Shown piece after piece: positions 43,417-60,127 of a DNA stretch of 64,000 bases. Source of the stretch: a phage; NCBI GenBank assembly GCA_011939005.1, contig GCA_011939005.1_4858.1; one strand, written 5' to 3'. Made by a program: the position numbers and the translations under genes. The notes under the pieces are model-generated. The model was not told the DNA's origin. It ran no database searches and saw only the letters and a list, made by a program, of their open reading frames with translations. Within the stretch, counting starts at the first letter, position 1. The number at the start of each line of letters is the position of its first letter.

Positions 43417-45585
43417 CTATTTCTTTGGCCGCACCCACGGTTTAGGGGCGGATTTGGTATACGGATTACATTCCATCATCTTACCGAGGTAGGCATCGTA
43501 ATACACGAAGCGATCGACATAGAACTTCTCCACCGGTGCACTACTGGTAGCCGATTTCACCCGGTTGCGTTCCACAGCGAGGCTAATCGCCCCGGTAGGT
43601 GCGGGTTTTAGCGTGAACATTACCGCGCGGTTGTAACGCCAAGTGTCGTGCACAATATCAAACTCCGATACACAGTGTGCCATGATACCAAACAATGTGG
43701 TGGCTGGTAAGTTGGCTACAGCATCGCCGTATGGTGTTCCCACCAAACCGCCGGGTATGTTTTGCTTTTTGAACAGCGTACCTGAAATAATCGTACCTAA
43801 GAACTCCACAACTACAGGCTTGGTTGGGTCGGTGACTTTATCTATCCCATCCGCACTGGCCAATCGGTTGGCATCTAAATCTGCGAGGTAGTCGAGGAAC
43901 TCTTGGTACTCGTCGGTAACATTCGGTTTCACCGTTCCGACGGATACCCAGTTGACGATACTTTTATTCCCACCGACAGCTTCGCCTGCCATCCCAGGGC
44001 GAGTCCATGACATCCCGTCTTCACGACCGTAGACATAGACTGGCGAGCCGGTAGCCGGGGTGTTCCATTGCTCGAACGCTGTATATCGTCCCGGCTGGCC
44101 CCAATCCCCACCCGGACCGCCATAGTAGCGACTCTGGTAGCCGGTAAATTGCGCGACGACTAACTGGGTAGCACCGCCTTTGTCACGGGACCCAGCTAAG
44201 CCGTTACGGTTATTGGTGCCGCTGGGCACCGCCGCGCCTGGCCCGAGAGGCGCACCACCAGCTCCACCGATCTTGGTGGTGCTAAACGCATAGTAGTCGC
44301 CCCCACCCCCACCACCGGCGATGGTGCCGTAGTTTTCGATGGTGACTTTGCCACGGAAGGTATCGCTAATGTGGATTGCGTCAGCTCCGTCCGCTGATGT
44401 GTTCGCAGGCATAGAGTAGACCACACCCGAACCACCACGACCAAGAATGGTTCCCCGGTTAACGAAGTTCCAAACCACCTCGCCAATTTGCGGCAATTCG
44501 TCGATAACGAACGTCGGTTTCAGGTTGCTGTCGCGATAAACGAAAGCCCCCGCATCTACGGTCACGTTAACAAACAAACGCCCGCACGCCGCATGGTTGG
44601 TCAACGTTGTGGCCCAGTAGCTGTCCGAAAGTTGCGACGTAGTTGTGTAGTTCAGGTTAAGGGTTTGCTCGTTATCTTGATAGCGTGCTACATTCAACGT
44701 GGCACTGCCCATGACTTTGTACGAACCCTCTACGGGTGCCAATTGCACTTGTCTCGGCCACTCGCCTGCCAGGTTCTCTACAGGAGCAATTTCGTTTACA
44801 TCAAAAACACTCCGAATGCCGAGTGTCTCGATGGCCAGAGCATCGTGCAGGCTACCGGTGAAATCATCCGGGACGTATGTGGTTTTGCCTGCATATGTCT
44901 CGAGTTTGTTACGTGAGAAGAACACATACTTCGTTCCAAACATCCCGCTCCCCGGTCTAGCGGTCAAAGCTACGACGCTGTTATACGCAGAGGTTTGGCC
45001 TATATCCTCCGGGGACATCGGGGCGCTGACATCGACTTTATCAAGATCCACGATCCGTTTGGTTGCATTAGAGTAGAAGTTAATCCACTGCTGCTTATTC
45101 GCAGCCTTTAGCGTGAAAATGATATTGGTAACAGTGTAGACAGTGTTGATATCCACGTCACCGTTTATCACATCTAGCGTTTGGCTGCCGTACCAGATAA
45201 GACTTGTCTGTTTCGCCTGGAACGTGATGCGCGCAGCATTGTTTGTCCAAGTGATGGGCAGGTCTTCAAAGTCGTCGGTTAAAAAGGTAATCCCTAGTAG
45301 AGTGTCTAAATGCGGCAACAGTTCGTGGATGGACGCACAAGTGGGAATGGCATCCAACTTAACCTTGGCGAAATAATCAGCAATATTTTGCTTCGTGACT
45401 TGGGCCGTAATTTGACCGTAACTAGAATACCCCGGACCCCCTGTCAGTGTGACGTCTAGGGTTTTTTCGTCACGATGCGCCACGGACACCAGGCGTACGT
45501 TAGCGGGGTCTACTGCTTTGGCGACCGCGTTTTTACGGTTGAGCGACCGAATCACGGTCGCCACTAAATCGGGAGTGTATGACAT
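43417..45585 (-). CDS. tail fibre-like protein with Gly-rich segment (722 aa)
   Basis: ATG with AAGGTG RBS; N-terminus resembles the family domain; GGGGGG and Gly-rich stretch; C-terminus SAPKPWVRPKK parallels SKTAPVPWYPAL of 45600..46919. Confidence 0.8.
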   Translation of the reverse strand: MSYTPDLVATVIRSLNRKNAVAKAVDPANVRLVSVAHRDEKTLDVTLTGGPGYSSYGQITAQVTKQNIADYFAKVKLDAIPTCASIHELLPHLDTLLGITFLTDDFEDLPITWTNNAARITFQAKQTSLIWYGSQTLDVINGDVDINTVYTVTNIIFTLKAANKQQWINFYSNATKRIVDLDKVDVSAPMSPEDIGQTSAYNSVVALTARPGSGMFGTKYVFFSRNKLETYAGKTTYVPDDFTGSLHDALAIETLGIRSVFDVNEIAPVENLAGEWPRQVQLAPVEGSYKVMGSATLNVARYQDNEQTLNLNYTTTSQLSDSYWATTLTNHAACGRLFVNVTVDAGAFVYRDSNLKPTFVIDELPQIGEVVWNFVNRGTILGRGGSGVVYSMPANTSADGADAIHISDTFRGKVTIENYGTIAGGGGGGDYYAFSTTKIGGAGGAPLGPGAAVPSGTNNRNGLAGSRDKGGATQLVVAQFTGYQSRYYGGPGGDWGQPGRYTAFEQWNTPATGSPVYVYGREDGMSWTRPGMAGEAVGGNKSIVNWVSVGTVKPNVTDEYQEFLDYLADLDANRLASADGIDKVTDPTKPVVVEFLGTIISGTLFKKQNIPGGLVGTPYGDAVANLPATTLFGIMAHCVSEFDIVHDTWRYNRAVMFTLKPAPTGAISLAVERNRVKSATSSAPVEKFYVDRFVYYDAYLGKMMECNPYTKSAPKPWVRPKK

Positions 45586-45599
45586 GGTGACACCTTAGT

Positions 45600-46919
45600 C
45601 TATAGCGCTGGATACCAAGGGACCGGGGCAGTTTTGCTATATGGACTGTAGACCATATAGCCGCCTTTGCTTGGGTCGTAATAGATGAAATAGTTACAGT
45701 AATTCGAGTAGAGGCTCGTCATTTGTTTGGATTGGTATCCGTTACGGTATAGTCCCTGGTAAGTAGTAGCTGATGTCGTGGTGGTGTAAGCAGTGTGGTA
45801 CAGTACCCGACGTCGGTTAGCAATACTTTCTTGGAACATCTCTTCGGTCGGAAACGCGTGTTGCATCAGCCGTCGAATACTCCCGGTACAGTATCGAGTG
45901 CCATACGGGGAACCCGTTAAATCATCCGCAGTTTCAGGCGATTCTGCCCGAGTCAACACGTACTCGTTTTGATACAACGTGACGCTCATCGAATTTGGGC
46001 TGGTTTCCCGGAAACTCATGTAACGCGCATAACGTTCGACGTCCTCTTCCTGCGCCAAATAGGCCACGTTATTTTTCGGACCAAAGTGCAAGAAGAACGG
46101 ACGGCGGAGATTACCCATATCCTCAGGTGGCGTCAACTTCACGCAGTAATTGTACTCCCCACGCATATCAGGGTCTAAGCCTGGGTTGTTATTGCGTGTA
46201 GCGACATACCCATAGAGGTCATACGGGTTATCAGTAGCAGCATTACCGATAGTGAACGGGATGCCCGACCATGCCGACAGCGCCGCGATGAACTGGGTCA
46301 TGTACGAGTTACTGTTTAGTCGCAGCGGGGTACCCATCTGGATATTGATTATCTGTTGGGTGTACATGCTCCAGTCGAGTCGATAGACCGTGCTGTAAAC
46401 ATCCATGGGTTCCCAAGCTCCGGTTTCGGTGGTGTGGTACAAGTCGGCAAAGCTGGGCTCTTCACGAATAAAGCTAATAGGAATGTGACCCGTGAATGCG
46501 GGGTTATCCGATTTAATCGCCACCGTCCGATCGCCCGTTGCCACAGTGATCATTGCAAACTGGCTGTCAGGATACGTTAAATCGTCAGCAGTAAGCACCA
46601 GCCCACAAGCTGCGGAAATCCGGTCGATGATGTCGCGGTAGACCGTCGCCCGATAAGGTACTTTAACCGGTACGCTGACGCCTTTAAAATACTGCGAAAG
46701 GTTTAAGCGGTCGTAGTAGATGTCCATCTTACCGCTGTAACCACCACCCTGTAATCCGTTTACCACGATACGGCTGTTGCGACCATCGCGCAAGGCATTG
46801 GTTAAAGGACCTTGTAATAACGCCACGTTGGTTGCGTTGAGCGGTTTCTTGAGCTGCGGGTTATCACGATTAATCTGATCCCAAACCAGTTGCATGACAG
46901 GTTTGTTATAGTTGATCAT
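45600..46919 (-). CDS. family paralog, C-type (439 aa)
   Basis: N-terminus MINYNKPVMQLVWDQINRDNP and VYYDRLNL motif shared with other members. Confidence 0.8.
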   Translation of the reverse strand: MINYNKPVMQLVWDQINRDNPQLKKPLNATNVALLQGPLTNALRDGRNSRIVVNGLQGGGYSGKMDIYYDRLNLSQYFKGVSVPVKVPYRATVYRDIIDRISAACGLVLTADDLTYPDSQFAMITVATGDRTVAIKSDNPAFTGHIPISFIREEPSFADLYHTTETGAWEPMDVYSTVYRLDWSMYTQQIINIQMGTPLRLNSNSYMTQFIAALSAWSGIPFTIGNAATDNPYDLYGYVATRNNNPGLDPDMRGEYNYCVKLTPPEDMGNLRRPFFLHFGPKNNVAYLAQEEDVERYARYMSFRETSPNSMSVTLYQNEYVLTRAESPETADDLTGSPYGTRYCTGSIRRLMQHAFPTEEMFQESIANRRRVLYHTAYTTTTSATTYQGLYRNGYQSKQMTSLYSNYCNYFIYYDPSKGGYMVYSPYSKTAPVPWYPAL

Positions 46920-46929
46920 TGCAACGTCC

Positions 46930-46965
46930 TAAAAAAGAAAATAGGCCCCGAAGGGCCTATTTTTA
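46930..46965 (-). terminator. rho-independent terminator
   Basis: Hairpin taggccc-cgaa-gggccta with T-run on minus strand. Confidence 0.55.
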
Positions 46966-47143
46966 GCTGTTATGGTGAAGTACGCTATCCCTTTAACTCC
47001 AGCTGCTTCGACGTCAGTTTGGATAACCACGCGGCCGTACGCTTTATTAGCGAAATTGAATCAGCGCTGATTCGACCTGCGAGTTCAGGGTTATCCCTTA
47101 CGACTTGTTGGCAGAGCAGTTCCAGTGCGCTATACAATCCCAT
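46966..47143 (-). pseudogene. decayed remnant of a family paralog (N-terminal about 30 codons joined out of frame to C-terminal about 28 codons)
   Basis: Intact RBS and ATG at 47143 encode MGLYSALELLCQQVVRDNPELAGRISADSI (compare MGLYTEPSMELLCQQIVRDNPGLAGKITADSI at 50555); region 46965-47070 is about 80 percent identical to 54051-54155 (3' end of 54050..54877) with a 1-nt deletion. Confidence 0.5.
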
Positions 47144-47154
47144 GAAGTCTCCTG

Positions 47155-48054
47155 TTAAGGCAGAACGAGTTCAAGTACCGCGATAGAACGTATTGTATTG
47201 GTTTCGTATCTACCGTACGACGGCGACTCTGGGTAGGGTGGACGGTTGTACCACTGATTGTAAATGTCAGACATAGCCGCAAAGAATGCAGATTGTTGGG
47301 CAGTAGTCGAATCGATTGAACCGACCGGAAGGTCGTCAAAGCGCGGCAACTGCCCACTGTAGTTGTACAGGCGCGCGAAAGTGTTAAACCACTCACCGTC
47401 GAGATACAACTCACTGTTACCGCTTCTAACGTTAGTCGTCCAGAATCTGTAGTCGAACAAATACGGCAAGCGCACCACGTATTCGTAACCGTTCTTCGCC
47501 ACCGTGCGGCGTTGGTTACGTGCAGTGGCCCAGCTCGGTACAAATCCATTGCCATCCTGGCCGTACATCAGCCCCTGGTTATAAATGAACTGCGGGCTAG
47601 CGTATATTATCGAGTTATCGGACATAAACAGAATACGGTTTTTGTAAATGAATTTATGCCAGGCACCAACGGCGGAACTGAACATATTCACCACGAGGCT
47701 GTTCAGTTCCGCGTTAGTGAATAACTCTGCTGGCGTTACTGTTCCAAAGTATCCAGCGTGCCAGTCGCCGTATAACAGCTTCTGGGGGCCAGGCCCGGTG
47801 TCTAAAAAGAACCCTTGGGCGGTAGGGGTGTTGAAGACACGCTCACCGTCTTTAACCGCAGCTATCCAATAACGGTAAGTGGTGTTGTTTTCCACAGCGT
47901 TGTCTTCGTACGATGTAGCGTCACCCGGAAGGGTTGCCAGAGGCGTTCCCGGTGCATTAACATCAATGGTGGCGTTGCCCGGCGTCTTGCGATAGATTTC
48001 AATGTTATCGAGCGCCTGTGGCTTCCGTTGTGCAAAGTTTAATGTAATAGGCAT
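47155..48054 (-). CDS. module protein B2 (299 aa), FN3-like N-terminus
   Basis: ATG at 48054 with GAGGAT RBS; paralog of 50569..51492 (IEIYRK...TYRYW, DTGPGPQ..GYFGTV). Confidence 0.75.
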   Translation of the reverse strand: MPITLNFAQRKPQALDNIEIYRKTPGNATIDVNAPGTPLATLPGDATSYEDNAVENNTTYRYWIAAVKDGERVFNTPTAQGFFLDTGPGPQKLLYGDWHAGYFGTVTPAELFTNAELNSLVVNMFSSAVGAWHKFIYKNRILFMSDNSIIYASPQFIYNQGLMYGQDGNGFVPSWATARNQRRTVAKNGYEYVVRLPYLFDYRFWTTNVRSGNSELYLDGEWFNTFARLYNYSGQLPRFDDLPVGSIDSTTAQQSAFFAAMSDIYNQWYNRPPYPESPSYGRYETNTIRSIAVLELVLP

Positions 48055-48056
48055 GA

Positions 48057-49046
48057 TTAATCCTCGATAAGCTCGATTACTGGAATCCAAATACCGCCCA
48101 CGGTCGCACCAGGGACATGTTGTATACGCTGGAGGTTATCCACGGTATCAGTGGAATCCGTCGTCGCTGTTCCGCGCGTCAGCCCCAACTTACGGTCTGG
48201 GTCAAACTCCTGACAATGCACCCCACGGCCACTCACCACCGATCCATTTCCGAATATGCTGATGTTCGACCGCGTTAACAGGGACATCACTTTTTTCTTT
48301 GCTGGGAACCAGGTACTTATCCCATAGATGAGTCGGTTGTATTCGCTATCGGCAGTATACGGTGACACGTCATGGATTTTTCCGTCCCACTGTGCATCGA
48401 GCGCCATGACCGGACTTTCACTGTCGTGTGTTAAACCGCGCAGCAATCGCATCCGATAGCGGTCACCCAACCACGTAAACTCCCCAGACTGGTCAACGTC
48501 AGGTAAATCACCATGACCGCCTTCCGGACCAGGTCCCGCCACACCGTACAGCAAACCCGCGTTATAAATCGCATCACGGCTATACAGCGTGTTGCCGTTC
48601 ACACGAAGACCACTAAGCAGATACAGAATTTTACCGTCTAGCTGGAACTTAAACAAGTACAGCTTAACAGTTGGGTCAATTCCAGAAAGGGCCACAAACC
48701 CTGGCGGATAATCACCCACGCTAGGCAATTCATCGTACGCCACATTCCCGTAATACGCAAAGCGGTCATCACCGTACTGTGGAGTCACGATGCCGATACC
48801 GCGACGGTTCTGAATCAGAATTGATTTCTGCGGACTGAACAGTGTCCGGCTTCCCACTGTCACGGTGGTCATGTAGTAATACGTTGTCCCCAGTATCGCT
48901 GTTCGGTCAGTATACTCAGTTTCCCCGTTAGTGAACGTTGCCAGAGGTTCAGGTAATGCCGTACGCACCAGAGGTTTGGTGTCGCGGTACAGCTTCACGG
49001 TCGAAGCCCCAGGGTTATTGTTCGTCCAACGAATTGTAAAAGCCAT
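48057..49046 (-). CDS. module protein A2 (329 aa), FN3-like N-terminus
   Basis: ATG with AGAGGTA RBS; paralog of 51502..52500. Confidence 0.8.
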   Translation of the reverse strand: MAFTIRWTNNNPGASTVKLYRDTKPLVRTALPEPLATFTNGETEYTDRTAILGTTYYYMTTVTVGSRTLFSPQKSILIQNRRGIGIVTPQYGDDRFAYYGNVAYDELPSVGDYPPGFVALSGIDPTVKLYLFKFQLDGKILYLLSGLRVNGNTLYSRDAIYNAGLLYGVAGPGPEGGHGDLPDVDQSGEFTWLGDRYRMRLLRGLTHDSESPVMALDAQWDGKIHDVSPYTADSEYNRLIYGISTWFPAKKKVMSLLTRSNISIFGNGSVVSGRGVHCQEFDPDRKLGLTRGTATTDSTDTVDNLQRIQHVPGATVGGIWIPVIELIED

Positions 49047-49058
49047 TGTCGTTACCTC

Positions 49059-50555
49059 TTATTGGAATCCATCCAACTCACCGTTAGTATCGCCCAGAGT
49101 AATTTTTGAAGGTTGGGCGATTTGGTCAGTCGTGAGAATAATCGGTCTAATCTTAACGCTAGCCATGCCTGTTACCGCGACGGAATATGCACGTTCATCA
49201 TTGTCCGTCGTGGCAAGCAGAGGACGTGGTGAGTCTGATGACGCTTCCCGTACCCAGGCAGGGGTGGCAGTTTCGGTGTTGTCGGTGTTGAAAACTAACG
49301 GACGTGGATTCGCTGCAGCGGAGGTTTCCGTAATCGGCACCACACGAAGCGATTCATTTTGGTCGATGTCCGTCAGAGTAACCACGGACGGTGCCCATGT
49401 TAGTTCTGCACCTTCGTCAATCAACGGCACAGGTTCATTGGCAACATCAATCATCTCCAAGATTGGCCAAAAGCCAGAAGAGGTGTAGATGTAGGTGTAT
49501 GAACGATAGCTCCCACTGATAGACTGGTAATACGCTTGGTCGGCACCGAACTGGTGTCGTAACCACACGTAATCCAGGAAGTTAGCATCAGTCGTGCTAA
49601 GAGTTCCCCATTCCCCATATACGTTCACCGACCCCAATTTGCTGGTCAGTGACAGGATAGAGGTGATTGACGGCGGTTTACTCCAATCAGGCGCGGCGGC
49701 GTTCTCGGTGTAATACGGGATAGACATTCTGAAATAATGCGTTCCTTCATCATCCCGTTTTACCATGTATTTCAACTGTTCAACATCGACAGGTGTGTAA
49801 GTCGACTTCGGGCGAGGTCCTGCGTCTCCGGAATCAAATATTGCACCCTTGTTGTACAGGTCTGCCCAGGTAACGTTGCAAATCGCACGGGTCGGAACAA
49901 ACACTACCGCCCCATTCAGAAAGAATTTGAGCCACTTGATAGCGTAGCGGTTAGGCCAGTTGGTGCCGTTATAGAGGGCATACACCATTTCATCAGATGT
50001 GAATAACTCTTCCGCGCTTACCAGCCCAAAAAATCCGTATAACTCATTACCGGCCATTAATCCTTTTGGCCCAGGGCCCGACTTCGGATACATCGCAATC
50101 GGTTCGTAAACATAGGTCATCTTGCATGACCCGGTATAGCACAAGGAGTTAGCGTGCGCCGTCAGAGTTACAGTTTCTGGCGTAGCGTATTTCATTAATG
50201 CAACGTTTGGACTGGTGATGTCACTCGCGGTTAAGTTCAACCCGTTCAATTCATTGAACGCCGGTAACGCTTCCGCATGGGTTTGTGCGCTACGTGGAAT
50301 ACTCACCATCTTCGGGCCAGACTTGAACAGACTGGCCAGATTCAACCGGTCGTAATAGACCGTTATTTCCCCAGCAAATCCTTTACCGGGTTTACCTACC
50401 AACGTAATCTGTGTGTTTCGTCCGTTAACGTTTTTCGCAACAGGAACACCCCTGACCCCAATGGAGTCAGCGGTGATTTTTCCTGCTAAACCGGGATTGT
50501 CACGCACAATTTGTTGGCAGAGCAGTTCCATTGAAGGTTCTGTATACAACCCCAT
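49059..50555 (-). CDS. module protein C2 (498 aa), family N-terminal domain, C-terminus ...NGELDGFQ
   Basis: ATG with GGAG RBS; TVYYDRLNL motif; about 27-aa C-terminal repeats. Confidence 0.8.
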   Translation of the reverse strand: MGLYTEPSMELLCQQIVRDNPGLAGKITADSIGVRGVPVAKNVNGRNTQITLVGKPGKGFAGEITVYYDRLNLASLFKSGPKMVSIPRSAQTHAEALPAFNELNGLNLTASDITSPNVALMKYATPETVTLTAHANSLCYTGSCKMTYVYEPIAMYPKSGPGPKGLMAGNELYGFFGLVSAEELFTSDEMVYALYNGTNWPNRYAIKWLKFFLNGAVVFVPTRAICNVTWADLYNKGAIFDSGDAGPRPKSTYTPVDVEQLKYMVKRDDEGTHYFRMSIPYYTENAAAPDWSKPPSITSILSLTSKLGSVNVYGEWGTLSTTDANFLDYVWLRHQFGADQAYYQSISGSYRSYTYIYTSSGFWPILEMIDVANEPVPLIDEGAELTWAPSVVTLTDIDQNESLRVVPITETSAAANPRPLVFNTDNTETATPAWVREASSDSPRPLLATTDNDERAYSVAVTGMASVKIRPIILTTDQIAQPSKITLGDTNGELDGFQ

Positions 50556-50568: not shown

Positions 50569-51492
50569 TTACGGTAAGACTAATTCAAAAGCAAAGAATA
50601 TCGTGGCCGAGTTCCCGACACCTGCGGTGTTACTAATCACCATAGGCACGGTGCCATACGCATAAGCGAATATGTTGTTGCTCCACAAAGGAGCTAATAC
50701 AGCGGCACCTGACTCATTCGGCTGCACAGTCGCGCCTTGTCTTGCAAGTGAGTCAATCGCACCAAGACCGAGGGCTGCGAACTGTGCACCGACAGGATAC
50801 AAACGGCCCATTGTGTTTCGCCATTCACCGTTGTTGTAATCCTGTCCTGAGAGAACAGCGTCGTACGGGACTGCGTAAGGTAATCGGATACGGTACGTAC
50901 GACCATCCTTCGTGACCTTACAATCTTGTTTAGTCGCCGTGGCTCCCTGCGGAACAATACTTCCGACATCATCGGTCCCGTACATCATACCGTACTGATA
51001 CGCCATTTGTACCGAGTTGGTTTTCGAATGCATCGTCGCTGGGAAGAAGACAATTCTCCCACGGAAAATAAACTTGTGCCATTCCTGAGGGTCGTAGACA
51101 AACATGTTTCCCTGCTGTGCAGTCAACATAAGCTTCAGCTCGGCGGTATTAAAGAACTCGGTATTCGGTACTGTACCGAAATAACCTGAAGCCCAGTCAC
51201 CACGCAAAATAGTTTGCGGACCCGGCCCGGTGTCCGGATAGAATCCTTGCGTAATCGGATTGCCGATAAGTCGTTCACTGTCCTTCACAGCAGCTACCCA
51301 ATAACGATAGGTTGTATTCTTCGTCAGAGTATCGATATTATCTACGAACTCTACCGCGTTGCCCGATAAAGTTGCGTGGGGTGTGCCTGGATTGTAAACG
51401 TCGATTGTTGCGTTCCAACCTTCCTTGCGGTAGATTTCAATCGCGGTAAGACCTTTGCTGGCTTGGGACGGCCAGCTTAACCGTATAGTCAT
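50569..51492 (-). CDS. module protein B1 (307 aa)
   Basis: ATG with AAGGGG RBS; paralog of B2. Confidence 0.8.
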   Translation of the reverse strand: MTIRLSWPSQASKGLTAIEIYRKEGWNATIDVYNPGTPHATLSGNAVEFVDNIDTLTKNTTYRYWVAAVKDSERLIGNPITQGFYPDTGPGPQTILRGDWASGYFGTVPNTEFFNTAELKLMLTAQQGNMFVYDPQEWHKFIFRGRIVFFPATMHSKTNSVQMAYQYGMMYGTDDVGSIVPQGATATKQDCKVTKDGRTYRIRLPYAVPYDAVLSGQDYNNGEWRNTMGRLYPVGAQFAALGLGAIDSLARQGATVQPNESGAAVLAPLWSNNIFAYAYGTVPMVISNTAGVGNSATIFFAFELVLP

Positions 51493-51501: not shown

Positions 51502-52500
51502 TTACTCGACCAGTTCAAAGATAGGGTAGTAACGCCCTTTCGTGGTGGGTGATAAATAGTTTATACGCTGAATCGTGGATACGGGTGTTCCACCGGCATT
51601 GTTAAAAATGCCACGATGGACCACACGGTCTTCCGCGGTGTCGTGTTCCATACAGAGAACTCCGGCACCGAAATACGTTGCCGAGGTTCCCAAATTAGCC
51701 TGCCCCAGATAAGTATAACTGTTCGCTGCCCAGTTAGCCCAACGCTGTTTCCTCGGCACCTCGTTAACCATCGTGTAAAGTAAATCGTTATACTCACACG
51801 GGTTGGTTAGAGAAGCGATTTCATCGTGGGTTTTCCCATTGTAGTCAGCTACGAAAGGATACGCAGGAGACTCGCTAGACGTCGTCAGGCCGCGAGGAAG
51901 ACGCATAATGTACGTATCCCCTTTGTGGACTATCTTAGCGTCTTGTGGAGTGGCCGGTAGCGTTCCATGGCCGTTCTCTGGGCCAGCATCGCCCGTACCA
52001 TAGACTAAACCAGCTTGATAGAGGGAAGCCCAGTCCACAGGCGTATTCGGGAACTGCGACGTGTTAGATAGCATGTAATAGATCTTCCCGTTTCGGGTAA
52101 ATTTATACAACGCCACACGATCGGTTAACAGGTTAGGGAACATCGCCAAAAATGCAGGTGGCATTTGCGACGGAAGCCACTGTTCGTCGTAAGGAACCTC
52201 ACCCATAAACCCTAAACGGTCGTTGCCGTTTAGAATAGTCATTGGGCCTATCCCGCGTTTTACCTCAATGGTATATTTCTGGCTAGACGACGCTACTGTT
52301 TTACCGTTGGCGGTTACCGTCAGAAGGTAATAATAGGTTGCGCCTGGTGTGGCGGTGGTATCACGCCATTCTGTCTCGCCGTTTGAGAGCGTTGCAATCG
52401 GTTCAGGCAAAGCGCTTGGTGTGATATCTTTAACATCACGGTAGATTTTTACTACCGTAGAGATTACGTTTGGATTTTTCCAACGCAAAGTAAAAGACAT
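51502..52500 (-). CDS. module protein A1 (332 aa)
   Basis: ATG with AGAGGTA RBS; paralog of A2. Confidence 0.8.
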   Translation of the reverse strand: MSFTLRWKNPNVISTVVKIYRDVKDITPSALPEPIATLSNGETEWRDTTATPGATYYYLLTVTANGKTVASSSQKYTIEVKRGIGPMTILNGNDRLGFMGEVPYDEQWLPSQMPPAFLAMFPNLLTDRVALYKFTRNGKIYYMLSNTSQFPNTPVDWASLYQAGLVYGTGDAGPENGHGTLPATPQDAKIVHKGDTYIMRLPRGLTTSSESPAYPFVADYNGKTHDEIASLTNPCEYNDLLYTMVNEVPRKQRWANWAANSYTYLGQANLGTSATYFGAGVLCMEHDTAEDRVVHRGIFNNAGGTPVSTIQRINYLSPTTKGRYYPIFELVE

Positions 52501-52511
52501 AGATGATACCT

Positions 52512-54002
52512 CTACTTAAAGCCGTCCAGTTCACCGTTAAGAGACGTTAACGTTGTCTTGTCAGGGGGCGTATACATTTCAGCGGTAGCCGCAATAGGTT
52601 GAAAATCGACAGTCTTCGGCAGCATTAATGCAGGCGGATGCAGTGCGAAACTGTTTTCTGAAGTAACGGCCACAGGTTGAAAATCGACAGTCTTCGGCAG
52701 CATTAATGCAGGCGGATGCAGTGCGAAACTGTTTTCTGAAGTAACAACTACCGGTTCGAAATCGGTAGTATCTGGATTACCGAGCACCAACGGCTTGAGA
52801 CTAAACGTGTTTTCTGCGGACACGCTGCACGGTTGGAGGCTGTAATCTACCGCGCCGTGGATATCTTCTAAGCCCAAGGTAACCGTGGACTTATCCACCA
52901 ACTCCAGCACCGGGAACCAGTAGTAGTTGCCCGCACTCGATGATTTTTCTAAGTTTGTCCAACTTGCTCCAGACAACGTCGCCATGCGATGATTGGCGAC
53001 GTTGGTGTTCAGTGTATCTTTCAATAAACAGAACAGCGTCCAGTAACTGTTAATCGGTTTGTCCCACGTTCCATTATACAGAAAGTTGAACATCTCAAAC
53101 TCACTACCTGCTAACTCAGCGGCAGTTGGGGTGCCGCTGACGTATGGGTCTTTCCCGGCACTAGGTAGACGAACGCGGAAGTAAAACCTTTTGTTGTCTG
53201 CGCCTGTAAAGCTAATGATGCGTCCCTGGTTAACGGGCGTCGCCGCAGGGTATTTACCATTATCATCTGTTCCGTAAACGAGTCCGTTTGTATATAACGT
53301 ATTCCAGGAGATGGAGCTAGCGACAGGACTGATCGGAAGGTAAATAACCCTACCCTGGTAAAAGAACTTGTACCAACCTTCGGCACCAGAATGTACCGGT
53401 GGTAACGCACCGGCCGATATAGTGGCATTAAGAAGTTGAGAGTGTGTAAACAACTCTGCAATTGTGGTTGTTCCGAAATAACCCGCGATAGTGTTACCTT
53501 GCAGCAACGTTTTAGGGCCAGGTCCAGAATCGGGGTAAATTGCACCGCTCGGGACGGTATAACGTATCGTTAAGCTGCCTATAAACGCAGGGCAATTACC
53601 TGAGATATTTAATTTCAACGTCTGCGGCGAAGCGCTCGGTTTAGGTAAACTTGCGTCAGGTGACTGCAAATCAGAAGCAACTAATGTAAGCCCCAATGCG
53701 TCGTTTATTGCAGGTAGCGCGTCTCGTACCGTTAAGACTGTATCTTTGATAGCCACAGTCGGCACAAAATTAAATAAAGTGGCCAGGTTAATCCGGTCGT
53801 AGTACACGGTAACATTACCTTGTACACCTGTCCCTGGATACCCGGTGAAAACAGCTTTGGTGTTACGTTGGTTTAACGTAACTGAAGTTGGGCCGCTGGT
53901 TAAAGCAGCGATAGCCGGTGTCAGCTTAACAACTAAATCAGGGTTATCCCGATTGACTTGGTCGTATACAAGCAGTGCCGACTCCTTCGAGTAAAATAGC
54001 AT
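52512..54002 (-). CDS. module protein C1 (496 aa), C-terminus ...NGELDGFK, contains 78-bp tandem duplication
   Basis: ATG with GGAG RBS; family N-terminus MLFYSKESALLVYDQVNRDNP; TVYYDRINL. Confidence 0.8.
   Translation of the reverse strand: MLFYSKESALLVYDQVNRDNPDLVVKLTPAIAALTSGPTSVTLNQRNTKAVFTGYPGTGVQGNVTVYYDRINLATLFNFVPTVAIKDTVLTVRDALPAINDALGLTLVASDLQSPDASLPKPSASPQTLKLNISGNCPAFIGSLTIRYTVPSGAIYPDSGPGPKTLLQGNTIAGYFGTTTIAELFTHSQLLNATISAGALPPVHSGAEGWYKFFYQGRVIYLPISPVASSISWNTLYTNGLVYGTDDNGKYPAATPVNQGRIISFTGADNKRFYFRVRLPSAGKDPYVSGTPTAAELAGSEFEMFNFLYNGTWDKPINSYWTLFCLLKDTLNTNVANHRMATLSGASWTNLEKSSSAGNYYWFPVLELVDKSTVTLGLEDIHGAVDYSLQPCSVSAENTFSLKPLVLGNPDTTDFEPVVVTSENSFALHPPALMLPKTVDFQPVAVTSENSFALHPPALMLPKTVDFQPIAATAEMYTPPDKTTLTSLNGELDGFK
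52597..52752 (-). repeat. near-identical in-frame tandem duplication (2 x 78 bp) inside CDS 52512..54002
   Basis: ggttgaaaatcgacagtcttcggcagcattaatgcaggcggatgcagtgcgaaactgttttctgaagtaac occurs twice with period 78 bp; encodes TSENSFALHPPALMLPKTVDFQPVAV twice. Confidence 0.8.
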
Positions 54003-54017
54003 AGGGACTCCGCATCG

Positions 54018-54046
54018 CCAAAAGAGGGGGCTCCGAAGAGCCCCTA
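54018..54046 (-). terminator. rho-independent terminator
   Basis: Hairpin ggggctc-cgaa-gagcccc followed by short T-run on minus strand. Confidence 0.5.
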
Positions 54047-54049
54047 CAC

Positions 54050-54877
54050 TTAGCTGTTATAGTGGTAGTACGCCACGCCTTTCACGCCTTCCTCATCGAT
54101 GCCCGTTTGGACAACCACGCGGTCGTACGATTTGTTAGCGAACTGAGCGGTGGATGTCGGCACATCCTGAACGGTGTTGCTGTTCAGTGGCCCCGCGTAG
54201 TTCGGAATACCCAGGTCATCCAACACCTTACGCAATCCAGCCCACTGCGGTAGGCCAGAAGCATCTACTGTCAGTAGGTTTTTATACGCGGTAAAGTCAA
54301 TACCATACGTCAACAAATCAATACACTTCTTACCGAGAGACGGTGAAATAGGCTCTTGAATCGCATTCAAGACATCCGATTTCACCGAAGTGTCTAGTAC
54401 CGGTAAACCACGGTTATAACGCAACGTCGCAGAACCGATATAAGCCGGAGATGTCGATAGCGCTACGATGTTCTGTGTATTGGTGTAATTTGGGGTATTG
54501 GGACCCGCCAGTGGGAGGTTATAGATATCGATTGCAGAGAAGTTTACTCCGTAAGTATCCAAGAGCACCGAAAAGGCTGAATGGAGGTTGGGCGCGTCAA
54601 ACGTGACGAACTGCGCCTGGACAGAAGGACCCCACGGCAATAACCGCGCTAAGTTCACACGGTCGTAGTAAACGGTGATTGCGTCTCGAAATCCGGAACC
54701 CTGAATACCGCGCAAGCGTGCCGACGTATTGCGGTTGTTGGAAGCTGCATTAACGGGAACCTGTGTCACTTTCTCCACGTAGCAGTTTGCCGGCGACGCT
54801 TTAATAGGTAGGTTTGGGTTATCCCGGTTAATGAGGTCAAAGACCAACTCGTTTGACGGCTTAGCATAGTTGATCAT
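54050..54877 (-). CDS. family paralog P7 (275 aa)
   Basis: ATG at 54877 with GAGGTA RBS; N-terminus MINYAKPSNELVFDLINRDNP; TVYYDRVNL. Confidence 0.75.
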   Translation of the reverse strand: MINYAKPSNELVFDLINRDNPNLPIKASPANCYVEKVTQVPVNAASNNRNTSARLRGIQGSGFRDAITVYYDRVNLARLLPWGPSVQAQFVTFDAPNLHSAFSVLLDTYGVNFSAIDIYNLPLAGPNTPNYTNTQNIVALSTSPAYIGSATLRYNRGLPVLDTSVKSDVLNAIQEPISPSLGKKCIDLLTYGIDFTAYKNLLTVDASGLPQWAGLRKVLDDLGIPNYAGPLNSNTVQDVPTSTAQFANKSYDRVVVQTGIDEEGVKGVAYYHYNS

Positions 54878-54880
54878 CAA

Positions 54881-55768
54881 TTATACCTCGCTTGGATCGT
54901 CCAGATCGTTGAACTGGAGATACAACGTTCCGACGATGGTGGTACAGGTAACAGGCAGTTTCAACGCCAGCACATACTTGTACTTCGCGTTTGTCGGCAT
55001 TGCAACAGGGTCATTCAGACCAACACTGATAACCTCCGCGCCCGCCAAACCGTAGGAAGCGGAAGTGGTCGCTACCCATGCAGTACCCGTGATATCTTTC
55101 AGCAGGTTAACCATATCCGTTAACGGCTGTCCGGACAGAATACCCGGCTTGTATGCCAGCAGAGCATCTCGGTACTTAGTGAAGTTGTACGGGTAGGAAT
55201 AAACCTCTGCAATGACCGCAGTAACATTTTCGGAACCCATCTGACCGTTCGGGTATTTCAGACCGGTCAGGACGTTAGTGGTGACTGCAGAGACTAACGA
55301 CTCATCACCTTTCACGACTTTAAATGTCGCCTGTCCAACCCAACCGATAGACTCTGGATGTGCAACAACACGCACAGTACCTTCGGTCTTATCACCGTTC
55401 CATTCGATATCTGCGTCCTGCAGGTCAGCTTCTTCCAGAACAAAACCGTAACGTTGGTTCAGTCCAGGAATGGCCGCATACAAGGTTTCGTTGGATGGGC
55501 CGATCGCCAACGTGTCACCGATCAGCACTAACAAGTCTTCGACTTTCATGCGGTTGTAGAAGACATTTTTCTTACCCGACCAGGTAGAGCCCGTTACCCC
55601 ATCTGCCGTAATTTTAATTTGCGTGTTACGGTTAGTCAGCGTTTCCTTCTCCGTACCACGGATGTCCTTTGGCGAGGACCAGATGATGTCAGTCATCTTA
55701 ACAGCAAGCGAGTTCTGTGCGTTCACTGCTGCCAACAGGACGTCTTTAGAAGGTTGATAAATAGCCAT
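54881..55768 (-). CDS. family paralog P6 (295 aa)
   Basis: ATG with AGGAAT RBS; conserved N-terminal domain, divergent C-terminus. Confidence 0.75.
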   Translation of the reverse strand: MAIYQPSKDVLLAAVNAQNSLAVKMTDIIWSSPKDIRGTEKETLTNRNTQIKITADGVTGSTWSGKKNVFYNRMKVEDLLVLIGDTLAIGPSNETLYAAIPGLNQRYGFVLEEADLQDADIEWNGDKTEGTVRVVAHPESIGWVGQATFKVVKGDESLVSAVTTNVLTGLKYPNGQMGSENVTAVIAEVYSYPYNFTKYRDALLAYKPGILSGQPLTDMVNLLKDITGTAWVATTSASYGLAGAEVISVGLNDPVAMPTNAKYKYVLALKLPVTCTTIVGTLYLQFNDLDDPSEV

Positions 55769-55778
55769 TCGCTAATTC

Positions 55779-56618
55779 CTAGTTGTTGTAGTGCAACATA
55801 CACTCGCCGATTACTTTCGGGTCGTTCTGAATGCCGGTAATCAGCAATACGTTATCGTACGCTTTATTGGCGGTCGCCAACTCACTCGTTTTGTAGCGGG
55901 TAATTGTGCAGTTCGTCGGATCAAACGACGGTACCCCACGTGCGACCAATGTGGCCATCAGATTGGACGTGTAACCCAAATCAAAGTTACTTCCTACATC
56001 CATTCGCCCGTTCTTAAACGAGGCCATAACCTGCACTTCATCGGTAAAGTCTTCCCCGTACGTCAAGAAGCCCATGTATTTCTTACCAGTGCTTGCTGCT
56101 GCAGGGTGGTTCAAAGCCAACAAGATGTCGTTTACCACGAGGTCTTCGAGGCTATTCTTACCCCGGATAGACATAAAGGTGATGCTGCCAGTGTATTGGA
56201 TACAGCTAGCGTTAATACGCATCGTGTTGTTTACGTTCAGATAAACGTATTGTTCTGGGATATCATCTGCAACCAGGTTTAATCCATAACGACCGTTCAG
56301 GTTCTGCGCAAACGCAGTACGTTTCGACTCCACGTTCAACCAACCGTAGGCATTCGGTGCAGTTACCTGAGGTGTCATGTTCTTAAATAAGTCGTTCAGC
56401 GACAAGCGCTTATAACGGAACGTCTGGGGACCGATATAGCCACGACCTTGACGACCACGAATGATAATCTCAGTATTGGCACCGCTTGCTGTCGGTGTGA
56501 TTGCTTTCGGCGTACCGATGATAGCATTGTCTAAACCCATCGGTAGCACAGCATCCGGGTTTTCGGCATTAATCGCATCGTACAGATATTGTCGCTGAGA
56601 CAGACTATATAAAGCCAT
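55779..56618 (-). CDS. family paralog P5 (279 aa)
   Basis: ATG at 56618 with perfect GAGGAGG RBS (track start 56636 is TTG). Confidence 0.75.
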   Translation of the reverse strand: MALYSLSQRQYLYDAINAENPDAVLPMGLDNAIIGTPKAITPTASGANTEIIIRGRQGRGYIGPQTFRYKRLSLNDLFKNMTPQVTAPNAYGWLNVESKRTAFAQNLNGRYGLNLVADDIPEQYVYLNVNNTMRINASCIQYTGSITFMSIRGKNSLEDLVVNDILLALNHPAAASTGKKYMGFLTYGEDFTDEVQVMASFKNGRMDVGSNFDLGYTSNLMATLVARGVPSFDPTNCTITRYKTSELATANKAYDNVLLITGIQNDPKVIGECMLHYNN

Positions 56619-56634
56619 AATAGCCTCCTCGGCC

Positions 56635-56680
56635 AAAAAAGAAAGGAGTAGCCGGGAGGAGGATTTCCTCCTCCCAGCGA
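56635..56680 (-). terminator. rho-independent terminator inside the paralog array
   Basis: Hairpin gggaggagga-tt-tcctcctccc followed by T-run on minus strand. Confidence 0.55.
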
Positions 56681-56687
56681 GGCCTAA

Positions 56688-57599
56688 TTAGGCATTAAAG
56701 TGCAGGTACATGATGCCCTGGAAGTTGGTGCACAGAGTGTCATCCAGCTGCAGCAGCAGAACCTGGTTGTAAGCAGTGTTTGCACCTTCAACCGGTTTCT
56801 TAGGTTCGTCGCCTGAAGCAGTGCCATCGTCAGTAGTAGAACCAACGTACAACACGTTAGCACCTTTCAGGTTATAATCCGCAGGCTCATCAGATGCAAC
56901 CCACAGTTCCGGCACAACTTTATTCAGCTCAACCGGGAATGCAGAGTCGCCAGCGATAACACCTTTCGCCTGTACTTTCAGGAATGGTGCGATTGCTGTG
57001 CAGTCTACACCGTAAGAGTAGATGTAACCCTGACCCTTCGCTTCGCTTGGACCATCTGGGTAAACCAGGCCGTCGAGCTTGGTTTGTGTTACCACCAGAC
57101 TCAGACGTTCACCAACCTGAGGCTTAGCACCGATTTTAACCGGGATGCTGCCCAGATAAGCGTAGCAGTCTTCTTTGAAGGTAATGACGTGGTCAACCGG
57201 TGCTGGGTCCGGATCGTTCGGGTTAGTCAGCGGCGGGTTGGTATTTTCCGGAATAGCCGCCGGAACAATATCATCTTCGGTCAGTTTCAGACCGTATTGG
57301 GTGTTCAGGGTCGTCAGCAGGTCGGTGGTGGTTTTCGGCAATTTAACGTCGAGGTATGCCGTTACATTACGGAACAGCGCACCGCCTTCCAGGCGATTAT
57401 AAGTCACGTCCTGAGTACCGATGTACCCGGAGTTCTTTTTCGCAGTCAGGGTCATGCTGGTATTGCGATCAGCACCTTCATCGCTAATAGGGGTCGGTGT
57501 GCCGAGCGTTATTTTAGAAAGTTCCAGTTCTGCGTCTGGGTTTTTCTCATTAATAAAATCCAGAACCAGCTTATCTGACGTTTTGTTTAAAGGTTTCAT
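56688..57599 (-). CDS. family paralog P4 (303 aa)
   Basis: ATG with AAGGAAG RBS. Confidence 0.75.
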   Translation of the reverse strand: MKPLNKTSDKLVLDFINEKNPDAELELSKITLGTPTPISDEGADRNTSMTLTAKKNSGYIGTQDVTYNRLEGGALFRNVTAYLDVKLPKTTTDLLTTLNTQYGLKLTEDDIVPAAIPENTNPPLTNPNDPDPAPVDHVITFKEDCYAYLGSIPVKIGAKPQVGERLSLVVTQTKLDGLVYPDGPSEAKGQGYIYSYGVDCTAIAPFLKVQAKGVIAGDSAFPVELNKVVPELWVASDEPADYNLKGANVLYVGSTTDDGTASGDEPKKPVEGANTAYNQVLLLQLDDTLCTNFQGIMYLHFNA

Positions 57600-57620
57600 T
57601 CTTACTTCCTTTACTCAGGA

Positions 57621-58466
57621 TTAATCAGGGTCGTTGTAATGCAAATACAAACGCCCGCCAAAATTCAGACAGTACAACGACAGCTCCACAATCAGCACGT
57701 TGTCGACTGCTGGGTTGGTTGGTAATTCCGCTTTGTTACGCCCGTTATAGACGACGACGGCTTCACGAAGGTTAAAGTCGATTGGGTTACGGTACGTTGT
57801 CCAGTTATCACCGGTGACCGTTTTGAGAATCTGCGCCAGACGTTCTGCGGTTATCGCAGCACCTAGTCGTTGAAATTCCTCCGCGAAATTATCAAAGCGC
57901 CAGGGATACGAATAAACTGCACCTTGACCGACCTTGATGTTAAAATACGGATACTCGTAAGGCATCACTGTTAACGGTTCGAAGTTTGCAGGAAGCAACG
58001 CATCGCCTGGTAACAGCTGTACCTGTTGTTGCCCTATCCAACCTAAAGAAGAGGGCGTGGCAATCAGATCCACACGCCATGTCTTCCTGTCGATTTCGGT
58101 ATTCACCACATCTGCAGGTTTAAGGCTGAGACCGTAATACTGGTTAATTAACCCGACCACGTCATGCATCTGGTAAACAGCATCGAGACGTGCAGGAACA
58201 CGTAAAGGTTGAATCCCGTCTGGGTCGGTAAACATGTCTGCGAAGTCAACACGATCGTAATAGACGGTAGTGGCACCGATAGCATTAGCCGTGGCCAATG
58301 CCTGAATGCGCACCATCGCGTTGTGACCGTTAGCTTTTGCCAAGTCTTCGTCAGACGTTGGAATCGCAGGGACACCAAAAACAACATCCTCGACTTTTAA
58401 ATCGAGATTGTTTTCGACGTTAACTTCCGCGATAATAATCTTTTCAGCTGTGGCTAAAAGTGGCAT
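57621..58466 (-). CDS. family paralog P3 (281 aa)
   Basis: ATG with AAGGAT RBS. Confidence 0.75.
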   Translation of the reverse strand: MPLLATAEKIIIAEVNVENNLDLKVEDVVFGVPAIPTSDEDLAKANGHNAMVRIQALATANAIGATTVYYDRVDFADMFTDPDGIQPLRVPARLDAVYQMHDVVGLINQYYGLSLKPADVVNTEIDRKTWRVDLIATPSSLGWIGQQQVQLLPGDALLPANFEPLTVMPYEYPYFNIKVGQGAVYSYPWRFDNFAEEFQRLGAAITAERLAQILKTVTGDNWTTYRNPIDFNLREAVVVYNGRNKAELPTNPAVDNVLIVELSLYCLNFGGRLYLHYNDPD

Positions 58467-58476
58467 GTCAAAATCC

Positions 58477-59319
58477 TTATATCGGGAGATAATGAAGGAT
58501 GAGATTACCGGCGTAGTTGCTGTCCGCAGCTAGCTTGATAATCGCCACACGCTGATAATCGGGGTTGTAACTATCGTTCGGTGTGACTGAAGTTATCCCC
58601 ATAAATCGTGCACCTTGGAGTGCAATTTGTTCAGGTTGCGCATTCGCCCCCGTCACATATGCAAACTTTAATGGCACCACTTCATTCAACAACTCAACAT
58701 CCGCTGCAGTGATTGCACGGTTGTAAACCCAATCGGTGGTGAACTGTTTTTGCAGTTCAGTCCAATCGTAACCATACGCCACATACTCGGCCTGTGGTTT
58801 ACTAGCAACCACGAACGGTGCGATTATTGCGCTGAGGTCAACATCCGTCACCACATCCGCCAAGTTCGGGAAGAACTTCGCAAAGCGTAAACGGAAACCA
58901 CCTTGCCAGGCCAAGCAACCGGGCTTAATAGTCACATCGATTAACCAGCTTTCTCCCAAATCTTTTACTGACTGGTCAACGATATCGTCGGCAACTAAAG
59001 ACAAGCCGTATTTCGCATTCAGAAACGGCAACAACTCAGAGAGTTTATTTACCGGGTCGGCAACGACTACCGGTATTACGTTCCTGAACAGAATTTCCAT
59101 TTCGATACGGTCGTATTCGAGCGTAACGTTGCCTTTGTAGCCCTTGCCGTTCAACCCGTATAAGAGCACACGTGTATTCCGGTCAGCGCCAGGCGTTTGG
59201 ACAGACTCAGGGAAGCCAGTTGCAACCTGCTCCCATGTGAGTGGATTGGCCGTTAATCCGTTCTGTCGGTTAATAGCATCTAACAACATCTCTTTCGAGG
59301 GCTTATCGTAAATAGACAC
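58477..59319 (-). CDS. family paralog P2 (280 aa)
   Basis: GTG start with strong AGGAGGG RBS; N-terminus MSIYDKPSKEMLLDAINRQN. Confidence 0.75.
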   Translation of the reverse strand: MSIYDKPSKEMLLDAINRQNGLTANPLTWEQVATGFPESVQTPGADRNTRVLLYGLNGKGYKGNVTLEYDRIEMEILFRNVIPVVVADPVNKLSELLPFLNAKYGLSLVADDIVDQSVKDLGESWLIDVTIKPGCLAWQGGFRLRFAKFFPNLADVVTDVDLSAIIAPFVVASKPQAEYVAYGYDWTELQKQFTTDWVYNRAITAADVELLNEVVPLKFAYVTGANAQPEQIALQGARFMGITSVTPNDSYNPDYQRVAIIKLAADSNYAGNLILHYLPI

Positions 59320-59329
59320 CTATACCCTC

Positions 59330-60127
59330 CTAGTTGTTAAAGTGTAAGTTGAGGCTGCCCTGGAAGTTCGTACATTTATCGGTCAGTTGCACTGACACGA
59401 CTTTCGCGAACGCCGTATTTGCTCCCGGTAAGTCTGCAGGTACGCCGTCGAATACGACAGTAGCACCACGCAAGTTATACGGGGATGGGGTATCTTCAGC
59501 CACCCAAATCTCAGGAACACATTTGTTGAGTTCGATTGCTAACGCCGTGTCATCTACTTCGATACCGACCGCTAAGAGGCTCAGGAAACGAGAGATGTGG
59601 CTACAATCGATGTCGCGCGAATAGATATACGCCTGACCCAACTGGATGTCCTGGTGATCCGGGTACAGAAGACCGCTCAACTCTGTATTGGTTATTACTT
59701 CTGCCAGAGGTGTAGCAGGTTTCAGCTCGATGACCGCTTGACTTCGCCACTCGTGGGAAGTTTCAACAGCAACGACTGTGTGAGTCTGTCCATCAATGGG
59801 GTTATCTTCGATATCCTCAGGTAAGATAGACAGATTAAAACGCTCGTTAATCGCCGCGAGTAAGTCGTGCGTGGTATGCACATCTTCATCGCCAAAGGCA
59901 ACATCGCCTGTAAGGTAGTCCTCTAATGGACGACGATGATAGTCCACAATCACTTGCGTACCTTCATCACCGCGCATTTTCGAGGTTAGTACCACCTCCG
60001 AATCACGACCGTCTACTGACACAACCTCCGGCAGTCCGATATCAACATCGTCAAAGGTAAGCGGTGGGCTTATCTTATTCTCTTCGTTGATGAGTTTTAG
60101 CAGATTCTGTTTTGAAGTAAAAGACAT
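59330..60127 (-). CDS. family paralog P1 (265 aa), first gene of array
   Basis: ATG start; palindrome ttaactcgagttaa lies 5 nt upstream on the mRNA. Confidence 0.7.
   Translation of the reverse strand: MSFTSKQNLLKLINEENKISPPLTFDDVDIGLPEVVSVDGRDSEVVLTSKMRGDEGTQVIVDYHRRPLEDYLTGDVAFGDEDVHTTHDLLAAINERFNLSILPEDIEDNPIDGQTHTVVAVETSHEWRSQAVIELKPATPLAEVITNTELSGLLYPDHQDIQLGQAYIYSRDIDCSHISRFLSLLAVGIEVDDTALAIELNKCVPEIWVAEDTPSPYNLRGATVVFDGVPADLPGANTAFAKVVSVQLTDKCTNFQGSLNLHFNN

Follow-up and report, generated by a model that had tools for sequence, protein, structure and literature searches.

The segment from 43417 to 60127 of a 64,000-nucleotide stretch of phage DNA (GenBank assembly GCA_011939005.1, contig GCA_011939005.1_4858.1; the whole stretch is referred to here as the window) carries a tandem array of minus-strand genes with similar beginnings, and raises the question of what their products build and where on the phage particle they act. 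The original prediction, made from the sequence, was that these paralogs share a virion-attachment module carrying a diversified set of binding or enzymatic heads. We find that the array belongs to a family of virion proteins already known in a close relative, and we think it on balance probable that its products are modular virion proteins organized around one chain-forming module, with filaments that display binding modules for host capture.

A tandem array of DUF7941 genes

The nucleotide identity of the array is 97.8% with Salmonella phage SPN3US and 98.1% with Escherichia phage vB_EcoM_EC001 (EC001), and judged by this similarity the window is that of a Seoulvirus, a phiKZ-like jumbo phage (chimallivirus). 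Its genes match SPN3US_0138 to SPN3US_0155 gene for gene in the same order and orientation, with proteins that are 91–100% identical; the differences are that gp151–153 are missing from the window and that the gp145 orthologue has one extra copy of a 78-bp repeat. The gene at 39988-40515, outside the array, is the orthologue of gp160, and we refer to all of these genes by their SPN3US names (Table 1). This is not a new kind of system, the array being the SPN3US 'paralog family B' described previously, which is Pfam family DUF7941 (PF25613). In SPN3US, family B consists of gp138–gp154 together with gp83 and gp160, and gp155 has no family label (Thomas et al. 2016, PMC5105663; Ali et al. 2017, PMC5694885; Scheuch et al. 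2023, PMC10052503); the name is from Ali et al. 2017, where gp141 and gp160 were noted to be highly abundant, and these three papers give neither fold nor function for the family. We note that "161" appears as a member in the 2017 paper while the 2023 tables mark gp160, and that it is gp160 in which the DUF7941 domain sits.

Eleven minus-strand open reading frames (ORFs) of the array have the N-terminal domain in common, with BLASTP matches within the first ~150 residues down to E = 1e-22, and all 11 pass the DUF7941 threshold (a gathering score of 27 bits) at 84–292 bits, as does gp160 at 43 bits. A profile constructed from the 11 array N-termini and searched over all six translated frames of the 64 kb recovers exactly the 11 array genes (E 1e-43 to 1e-57), gp160 (E 2.6e-7), and a single remnant, which matches profile positions 1–34 at 46988-47170 (E 1.3e-3); no further DUF7941 N-terminus of note is found in the 64 kb, the next match having an E value of 1.5. 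The 11 intact genes with their coordinates, the remnant, and the outlying short member are thus as originally predicted, the N-terminal similarity is significant, and the proposed motif (INR.NP ... TVYYDR.NL..LF) is the consensus of the alignment, although the domain is about 150–160 residues long rather than 70–90. By structure and sequence comparison it has the fold of phiKZ gp127 (Foldseek E 3e-5; profile-to-PDB sequence match E 7.8e-9), which with gp126 has been located by cryo-electron microscopy at one copy per star lobe end of the outer baseplate (PDB 9xqd; Nat Commun 2026, PMC13250141).

The proteins were also predicted to diverge completely after this domain, and a common N-terminus with differing C-terminal parts is indeed the pattern in part of the array. 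However, seven of the 11 (54050-60127) are full-length two-domain paralogs, and not anchor-plus-head fusions, that cover all 276 positions of the DUF7941 profile and align end to end, gp145 and gp148 are related throughout their length, and gp154 and gp155 have a C-terminal domain in common (E 2e-5). The suggestion of enzymatic or depolymerase heads finds no support, as neither Pfam nor PHROG scans of the array proteins, nor the structural models of gp145 and gp141, reveal a beta-helix or a glycoside hydrolase or lyase catalytic domain. Four to six array genes carry a "glycosyl hydrolase" label in GenBank records OQ383623 and MT679221, for which we likewise see no basis in Pfam, PHROG, or the structural model.

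DUF7941 homologues are present in 130 jumbo-phage records, with hosts that include Erwinia, Salmonella, Serratia, Klebsiella, and others, and the N-terminal profile, at E values up to 1e-3, matches 3400 cluster representatives among 1.84 billion proteins. The metagenomic proteins range in length from 152 to more than 2000 residues; some have 2–7 tandem N-terminal domains (Pfam), and others are fusions of the module to GP38, immunoglobulin (Ig), SPRY, ConA-like lectin, or cadherin-like domains. No larger concentration of DUF7941 genes is known than the array described here, and the family is one for which a role in host recognition was proposed in 2026. One metagenomic protein, P0168 (1166 residues), contains from 7 (Pfam) to 13 (our own profile) tandem stretches of the DUF7941 N-terminal type and looks like a covalent version of the chain proposed below, and Klebsiella phage vB_KpM_FBKp24 (307 kb) encodes a full-length homologue at 293449-294258 with 30% identity over 98% of gp141.

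Full-length paralogs, the short member, and a conserved linker

The seven genes gp138–gp144 each encode an N-terminal domain, a linker, and a C-terminal domain, and each has a positional orthologue in Erwinia phage Caitlin with 59–85% identity. The AlphaFold2 model of the gp141 orthologue shows two domains with a predicted local distance difference test score (pLDDT) of about 90, separated by residues 160–190 with pLDDT 59–70 (predicted template modelling score 0.52). In an alignment of 25 sequences (the query and 24 orthologues) the linker block at residues 161–170 (QVGERLSLVV) is the conservation maximum of the protein, with a mean majority frequency of 0.94, and it has nearly the lowest model confidence; this combination fits a linker that folds only on a partner. 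The start of SPN3US gp139 has been placed by mass spectrometry 30 nt upstream of its GenBank annotation (Table S6), which fits the 280-residue GTG-start ORF in the window.

A similar organization, with the same N-terminal domain, a linker that is disordered, and a domain at the C-terminus, is found in phage Goslar, where the family is described as chimallivirus-specific. Purified Goslar gp22 forms filaments, AlphaFold3 predicts head-to-tail dimers, and some members are reported to carry carbohydrate-binding, hydrolase, or leucine-rich repeat (LRR) domains, from which a baseplate "fibre cloud" for host recognition was proposed (bioRxiv 10.64898/2026.04.21.720040). The functional idea of the original prediction closely resembles this proposal, although it was reached independently, and it is partly supported here by the fold and domain evidence. 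The seven paralogs of about 280 residues are probably filament subunits, and gp141 is the probable major chain subunit.

The gp160 orthologue consists of the N-terminal domain and linker only, and its alignment with the full-length family (hhalign probability 95%, E 3e-8) stops directly after the linker motif, with its TTNGELDGF aligned to the linker TQTKLDGL. In SPN3US it is the second most abundant member, with 583 peptide-spectrum matches (PSM) (Scheuch et al. 2023, PMC10052503), and it has a Goslar analogue in gp23, which is likewise short, highly abundant, and without the C-terminal domain. The NGELDGF end is common to the gp160, gp145, and gp148 orthologues, in the latter two following a disordered tail, and through the gp160 alignment we infer that it may be equivalent in position to the linker motif T.T.LDGL of the full-length members.

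Candidate binding modules

Four genes within the span (gp146, gp147, gp149, and gp150) lack the N-terminal domain, and BLASTP shows that they share the middle domain of gp145 and gp148. Part of the array is therefore organized as three-gene units, each with an anchor-bearing gene followed by partner 1 and partner 2; there are two such units in the window (gp145–147 and gp148–150) and three in SPN3US. Phages EC001, Lh1B, and SPLA3 likewise have two units, and SEGD1 has three. By fold similarity the middle domain looks C-type-lectin-like, the matches to its model being of the C-type-lectin/FGE (formylglycine-generating enzyme) type and including Treponema TvpA, a Bdellovibrio fibre tip, the Legionella Lcl C-terminal domain (Lcl-CTD), natural killer cell receptor lectins, and Mtd of phage BPP-1. 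It differs from these adhesin domains in matching no lectin or FGE family at the level of sequence, and neither Pfam Lectin_C nor FGE-sulfatase is matched by any array protein. A diversity-generating retroelement was not seen, although no search was aimed at one. A fibronectin type III (FN3)- or Ig-like N-terminus that we considered for the four anchor-less proteins was not confirmed, with no Pfam match and a best PDB sequence match of E 1.3 to a pectate lyase segment. The disordered tail of gp145 contains a 78-bp tandem repeat at 52596-52764 (2.2 copies, the first 1.9 of them 100% identical), and its extra copy relative to SPN3US adds 26 residues, so that the protein is 496 residues long here and 470 in SPN3US and most database relatives. 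Identity to Caitlin is 63–69% for gp145–147 and only 31–41% for gp148–150, which have no evident orthologue there.

A second candidate binding module is in gp155. Its DUF7941 similarity (83.6 bits) is in two stretches, the second of which is a repeat with an independent E value of 6e-5, and residues 373–553 match Pfam GP38 (PF05268) at 65.7 bits (cut-off 25) over profile positions 61–214 of 218; PDB sequence matches to 6f45_D and 9v85_A (E 5e-3) extend over the glycine-rich motifs of the S16 and T-even gp38 proteins. Positions 1–60 of the GP38 profile, the gp37-docking N-terminus, are unmatched in gp155 by Pfam, and because residues 1–306 are instead of the DUF7941 type we regard gp155 as a domain fusion and not as a functional member of the gp38 family. 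It thus appears that a gp38-type adhesin domain has here been re-mounted onto an anchor of the DUF7941 type. With T-even and S16 gp38 (PF05268; PDB 6f45) gp155 has the glycine-rich receptor-binding domain in common, whereas two DUF7941 N-terminal domains take the place of the gp37-docking domain, there is an extra C-terminal domain, and in SPN3US the protein is found on tailless heads and not at the tip of a long tail fibre. The SPN3US papers describe gp155 as a head protein and do not count it in the paralog family (PMC10052503), but by Pfam it is a member. Only five full-length homologues of gp155 exist. In gp154, phrog_1037 is matched over residues 1–287 and phrog_6409 over 312–436, with a Pfam score of 92.6 bits. 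Both gp154 and gp155 are absent from Caitlin; an apparent variability among Seoulviruses (database rows with 78% coverage) is an artefact of an extra three-gene unit that splits the match, and phage SEGD1 has both genes.

These candidate modules differ in kind from those of Goslar, where the cargo is reported as glycoside hydrolase and LRR domains and not lectin-like and gp38-type ones, although in both phages it is the minor members that carry domains of a carbohydrate-binding type. The arrangement also differs, as Goslar has 10 scattered members and the window has 12 intact ones (11 in one tandem array, and gp160) with four anchor-less lectin-domain partners. In phiKZ there are only about three members; the total copy number of the array proteins is much higher, and in SPN3US these proteins are associated with the head.

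Location on the virion and possible function

Virion presence, on which the original prediction depended, is documented in SPN3US, where mass spectrometry finds gp138–155 and gp160 in tailless heads as well as in wild-type particles (Scheuch et al. 2023, PMC10052503, Table S2). In the tail-tube amber mutant 255(am107) the normalised head/wild-type ratios are 0.9–1.7 for gp138–155 and gp160, compared with 1.39 for the capsid protein, 1.40 for the portal, and at most 0.07 for tail proteins (PMC10052503), and in the tailless mutant 64_112(am27) gp138–154 are likewise kept with heads. Because they are retained with tailless heads in two independent mutants, the array proteins are not classical tail-fibre proteins. 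Very rough copy numbers per virion calculated from spectral counts are 250–520 for gp160, 180–375 for gp141, 85–180 for gp143, and tens or fewer for each of the others, with a rough total of 850–1800 array proteins; the partners of a three-gene unit are within ~2.6-fold of each other.

These observations suggest how a filament could be put together. The abundant gp141 and gp143 and the short gp160 would build flexible hetero-polymeric filaments, which low-copy members would join through their N-terminal domains so as to display binding modules, the C-type-lectin-like domain in gp145 and gp148 and the T-even gp38-type glycine-rich adhesin in gp155. The anchor-less gp146/147 and gp149/150 probably ride on gp145 and gp148 through the common lectin-like domain, which would explain why the three-gene units are conserved. 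The likely job of such filaments would be to capture host surface structures before tail-fibre binding. Since the proteins co-purify with DNA-filled tailless heads, the chains are likely attached to the head or neck in SPN3US-type phages, with gp237, a family member encoded outside the window and a tail protein in SPN3US (PMC10052503), as a tail-associated relative. We favour this external, head- or neck-anchored placement, and consider it the weakest step.

Several points weigh against this reading. Polymerisation has been described in one preprint about a distant paralog, no phenotype is reported for any mutant in the array, and a profile of the linker alone has no significant match to the C-terminal tails (E > 0.3). 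Association with heads fits the outside or the inside of the capsid alike, and for gp141 and gp160 the SPN3US authors tentatively suggested an internal role, as "antler" or ejection proteins; the array proteins are also present in DNA-free protease-null prohead preparations, which held tails too. Finally, the Goslar preprint puts the filaments on the baseplate and not on the head.

A more specific version of the filament reading, which we offer tentatively and would not expect to hold in full, is that the chains form a cloud of adhesins on the capsid or neck, with the gp38-type adhesin of gp155 and one hetero-oligomeric lectin head per three-gene unit at the tips. If true, the tailless-head proteomics of SPN3US and the filament data from Goslar would be reconciled, and the jumbo-phage capsid would be an active host-capture organ whose repertoire shifts by unequal recombination.

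Alternatively, the array could encode internal head proteins, corresponding to the densities called "antlers" beneath the capsid vertices or to an ejected bolus, and acting inside the capsid or the infected cell. Retention of all members with tailless DNA-filled heads at the normalised level of the capsid and portal proteins is as expected if this were so, as is their recovery from protease-null proheads, and the SPN3US group's labels "Head ejection?" and "antler" extend to gp141, gp143, and gp160; the antlers are an unassigned density under the 5-fold vertices. On the other side, the tags are unexplained spreadsheet notes, and tails and debris were present in the prohead preparations too. None of the SPN3US orthologues is cleaved by the prohead protease, and they have no capsid-targeting propeptide or protease site, unlike the processed internal proteins gp53, gp54, and gp47, although this is a weak argument as other presumed ejection proteins, such as the subunits of the virion RNA polymerase, are also uncleaved. 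The one structurally observed member, phiKZ gp127, lies on the outside, the Goslar paralog makes long filaments in vitro, and the lectin-like, gp38-adhesin, Ig, SPRY, and ConA-lectin domains to which the module is fused are surface-binding domains. We consider an internal location unlikely.

It is also conceivable that the filaments form a baseplate-anchored "fibre cloud" at six outer-baseplate sites, as proposed for Goslar, and that the association with heads seen for SPN3US is an artefact of purification. In phiKZ, the N-terminal domain of gp127 is at the end of each star lobe, where gp126–gp127 fit unassigned density, SPN3US gp237 is a tail protein, and the array is about 6 kb from the tail-fibre/baseplate genes gp167–170 (20082-34467, plus strand). 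However, the two tailless mutants, purified through step and buoyant-density CsCl gradients, keep the array proteins fully while tail proteins drop more than 14-fold, and protein-only filaments would be unlikely to band with DNA-filled heads unless attached to them; moreover, no density for DUF7941 proteins was seen on the Goslar baseplate. The tailless-head data thus conflict with baseplate anchoring, and SPN3US goes unmentioned in the Goslar preprint; we judge the artefact explanation to be decidedly improbable. Least probable of all is that the array is a redundant and largely neutral amplification arising from recombination-prone replication, in which only a member or two would matter while the others drift, since in spite of copy-number differences among near-identical phages (two three-gene units in some and three in others, with stubs decayed to three different extents) and the lack of any essential amber mutant mapped to the array in the SPN3US papers, all seven small paralogs are kept as positional orthologues across genera, every member is expressed and built into the virion, and the ORFs are intact with but a single stub.

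The SPN3US system of amber mutants and proteomics could directly test the host-recognition model for DUF7941, and the gp38-type and lectin-like cargo, together with natural variants of two and three units, offer handles for host-range work on jumbo phages used in Salmonella and E. coli biocontrol. Four points seem worth passing on: the unrecognised conflict between the head data and the baseplate model, the membership of gp155 and its gp38-type domain, the lectin-like fold of the three-gene units, and the recombination scars described below.

Remodelling of the array and possible transcription signals

Comparison with relatives reveals differences in the number of three-gene units, in stubs, and in the presence of gp154 and gp155. 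Relative to SPN3US the window has a 3.3 kb deletion in which gp152 and gp153 are lost together with gp151 beyond approximately codon 32 and a portion of the spacer, and the remaining stub (Table 1) marks the loss of this third three-gene unit. A stub of the same kind is present in SPN3US between gp153 and gp154 (30 codons; 9499-9676 of the compared locus), and EC001 has one of 10 codons (4004-4093 of the compared locus) with a deletion junction different from that of the window. In another frame the spacer before gp154 encodes GVKGIAYFTIT, a sequence reminiscent of how gp144 ends at its C-terminus. The three states of stub decay and the two deletion junctions indicate that the array has been remodelled by recombination or deletion at paralogous gene starts, and we suppose that copy number would change by recombination between these starts.

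GC-rich hairpins with T-runs (pattern matches, Table 1) separate gp138–144, gp145–150 with the stub, and gp154–155, and these blocks are possible transcription units. Sigma-70 promoters are not enriched over shuffled sequences (17 found, 21 expected), although this count is uninformative because phages of the SPN3US type use their own RNA polymerases.

Table 1. DUF7941 genes, partner genes, and associated features of the window, named by SPN3US orthologue
Feature	Position	Strand	Length	Description
gp138	59330..60127	−	265 aa	Full-length DUF7941; Pfam 229.6 bits, profile 5–276 of 276; 100% identical to SPN3US
gp139	58477..59319	−	280 aa	Full-length DUF7941; GTG start; Pfam 238.5 bits
gp140	57621..58466	−	281 aa	Full-length DUF7941; Pfam 265.5 bits
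gp141	56688..57599	−	303 aa	Full-length DUF7941; most abundant full-length member in SPN3US
gp142	55779..56618	−	279 aa	Full-length DUF7941; from probable ATG at 56618 (ORF 55779-56636); Pfam 267.8 bits
gp143	54881..55768	−	295 aa	Full-length DUF7941; Pfam 273.9 bits; third in abundance in SPN3US (346 PSM)
gp144	54050..54880	−	275–276 aa	Full-length DUF7941; Pfam 291.7 bits
Hairpin	54027..54044	−		GC-rich, with T-run; separates the seven small genes from the first three-gene unit; terminator-like, pattern match only
gp145	52512..54002	−	496 aa	DUF7941 N-terminal domain 1–150; predicted C-type-lectin-like domain ~155–377; disordered tail 378–496 with 78-bp repeat; NGELDGF end
gp146	51502..52500	−	332 aa	No DUF7941; predicted lectin-like domain; BLASTP to gp145 E 1.9e-8, to gp149 E 3.7e-73
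gp147	50569..51492	−	307 aa	No DUF7941; predicted lectin-like domain; BLASTP to gp145 E 3.4e-19, to gp150 E 1.3e-64
gp148	49059..50555	−	498 aa	Architecture of gp145; NGELDGF end; Pfam 105.3 bits; 29% full-length identity to gp145, E 9e-62
gp149	48057..49046	−	329 aa	gp146 paralog; phrog_1062 match
gp150	47155..48054	−	299 aa	gp147 paralog; from ATG at 48054
Decayed remnant	46985..47143	−	52 codons	Stub; first 31 codons are a gp151-type gene start; begins MGLYSALELLCQQVVRDNPELAGRISADSIS
Hairpin	46938..46963	−		GC-rich, with T-run; between stub and gp154; visible in sequence
gp154	45600..46919	−	439 aa	Near full-length DUF7941; extra C-terminal domain 312–436 common to gp155
gp155	43417..45585	−	722 aa	DUF7941 N-terminal-type 11–155 and 176–306; putative glycine-rich gp38-type adhesin 373–553; gp154-type C-terminal domain
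Hairpin	43340..43361	−		GC-rich, with T-run; after gp155; pattern match only
gp160	39988..40515	−	175 aa	DUF7941 N-terminal domain and linker only; NGELDGF end; Pfam 43.2 bits

Neighbouring genes

No tRNA genes were identified in the window. Between gp155 and gp160 there are four genes (41257-43365 on the minus strand and 40640-41131 on the plus strand), which encode an endolysin (GH108 and PG_binding_3), a DUF1353 protein labelled in RefSeq as a tail assembly chaperone, a protein with weak similarity to Peptidase_M15, and, on the opposite strand, a small protein with a lipoprotein-like N-terminus; SPN3US gp156–158 are classed as non-virion proteins. On its other side gp160 adjoins a plus-strand gene (39235-39906) for a DUF4376 protein, the orthologue of gp161. 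The plus-strand region 20082-34467, which is divergent from the array, contains ORFs of 1237, 1376, and 1742 residues followed by one of 412 residues, and by position and size these are candidates for SPN3US gp170, gp169, and gp168 (paralog family C, themselves baseplate or tail-fibre candidates) and gp167.

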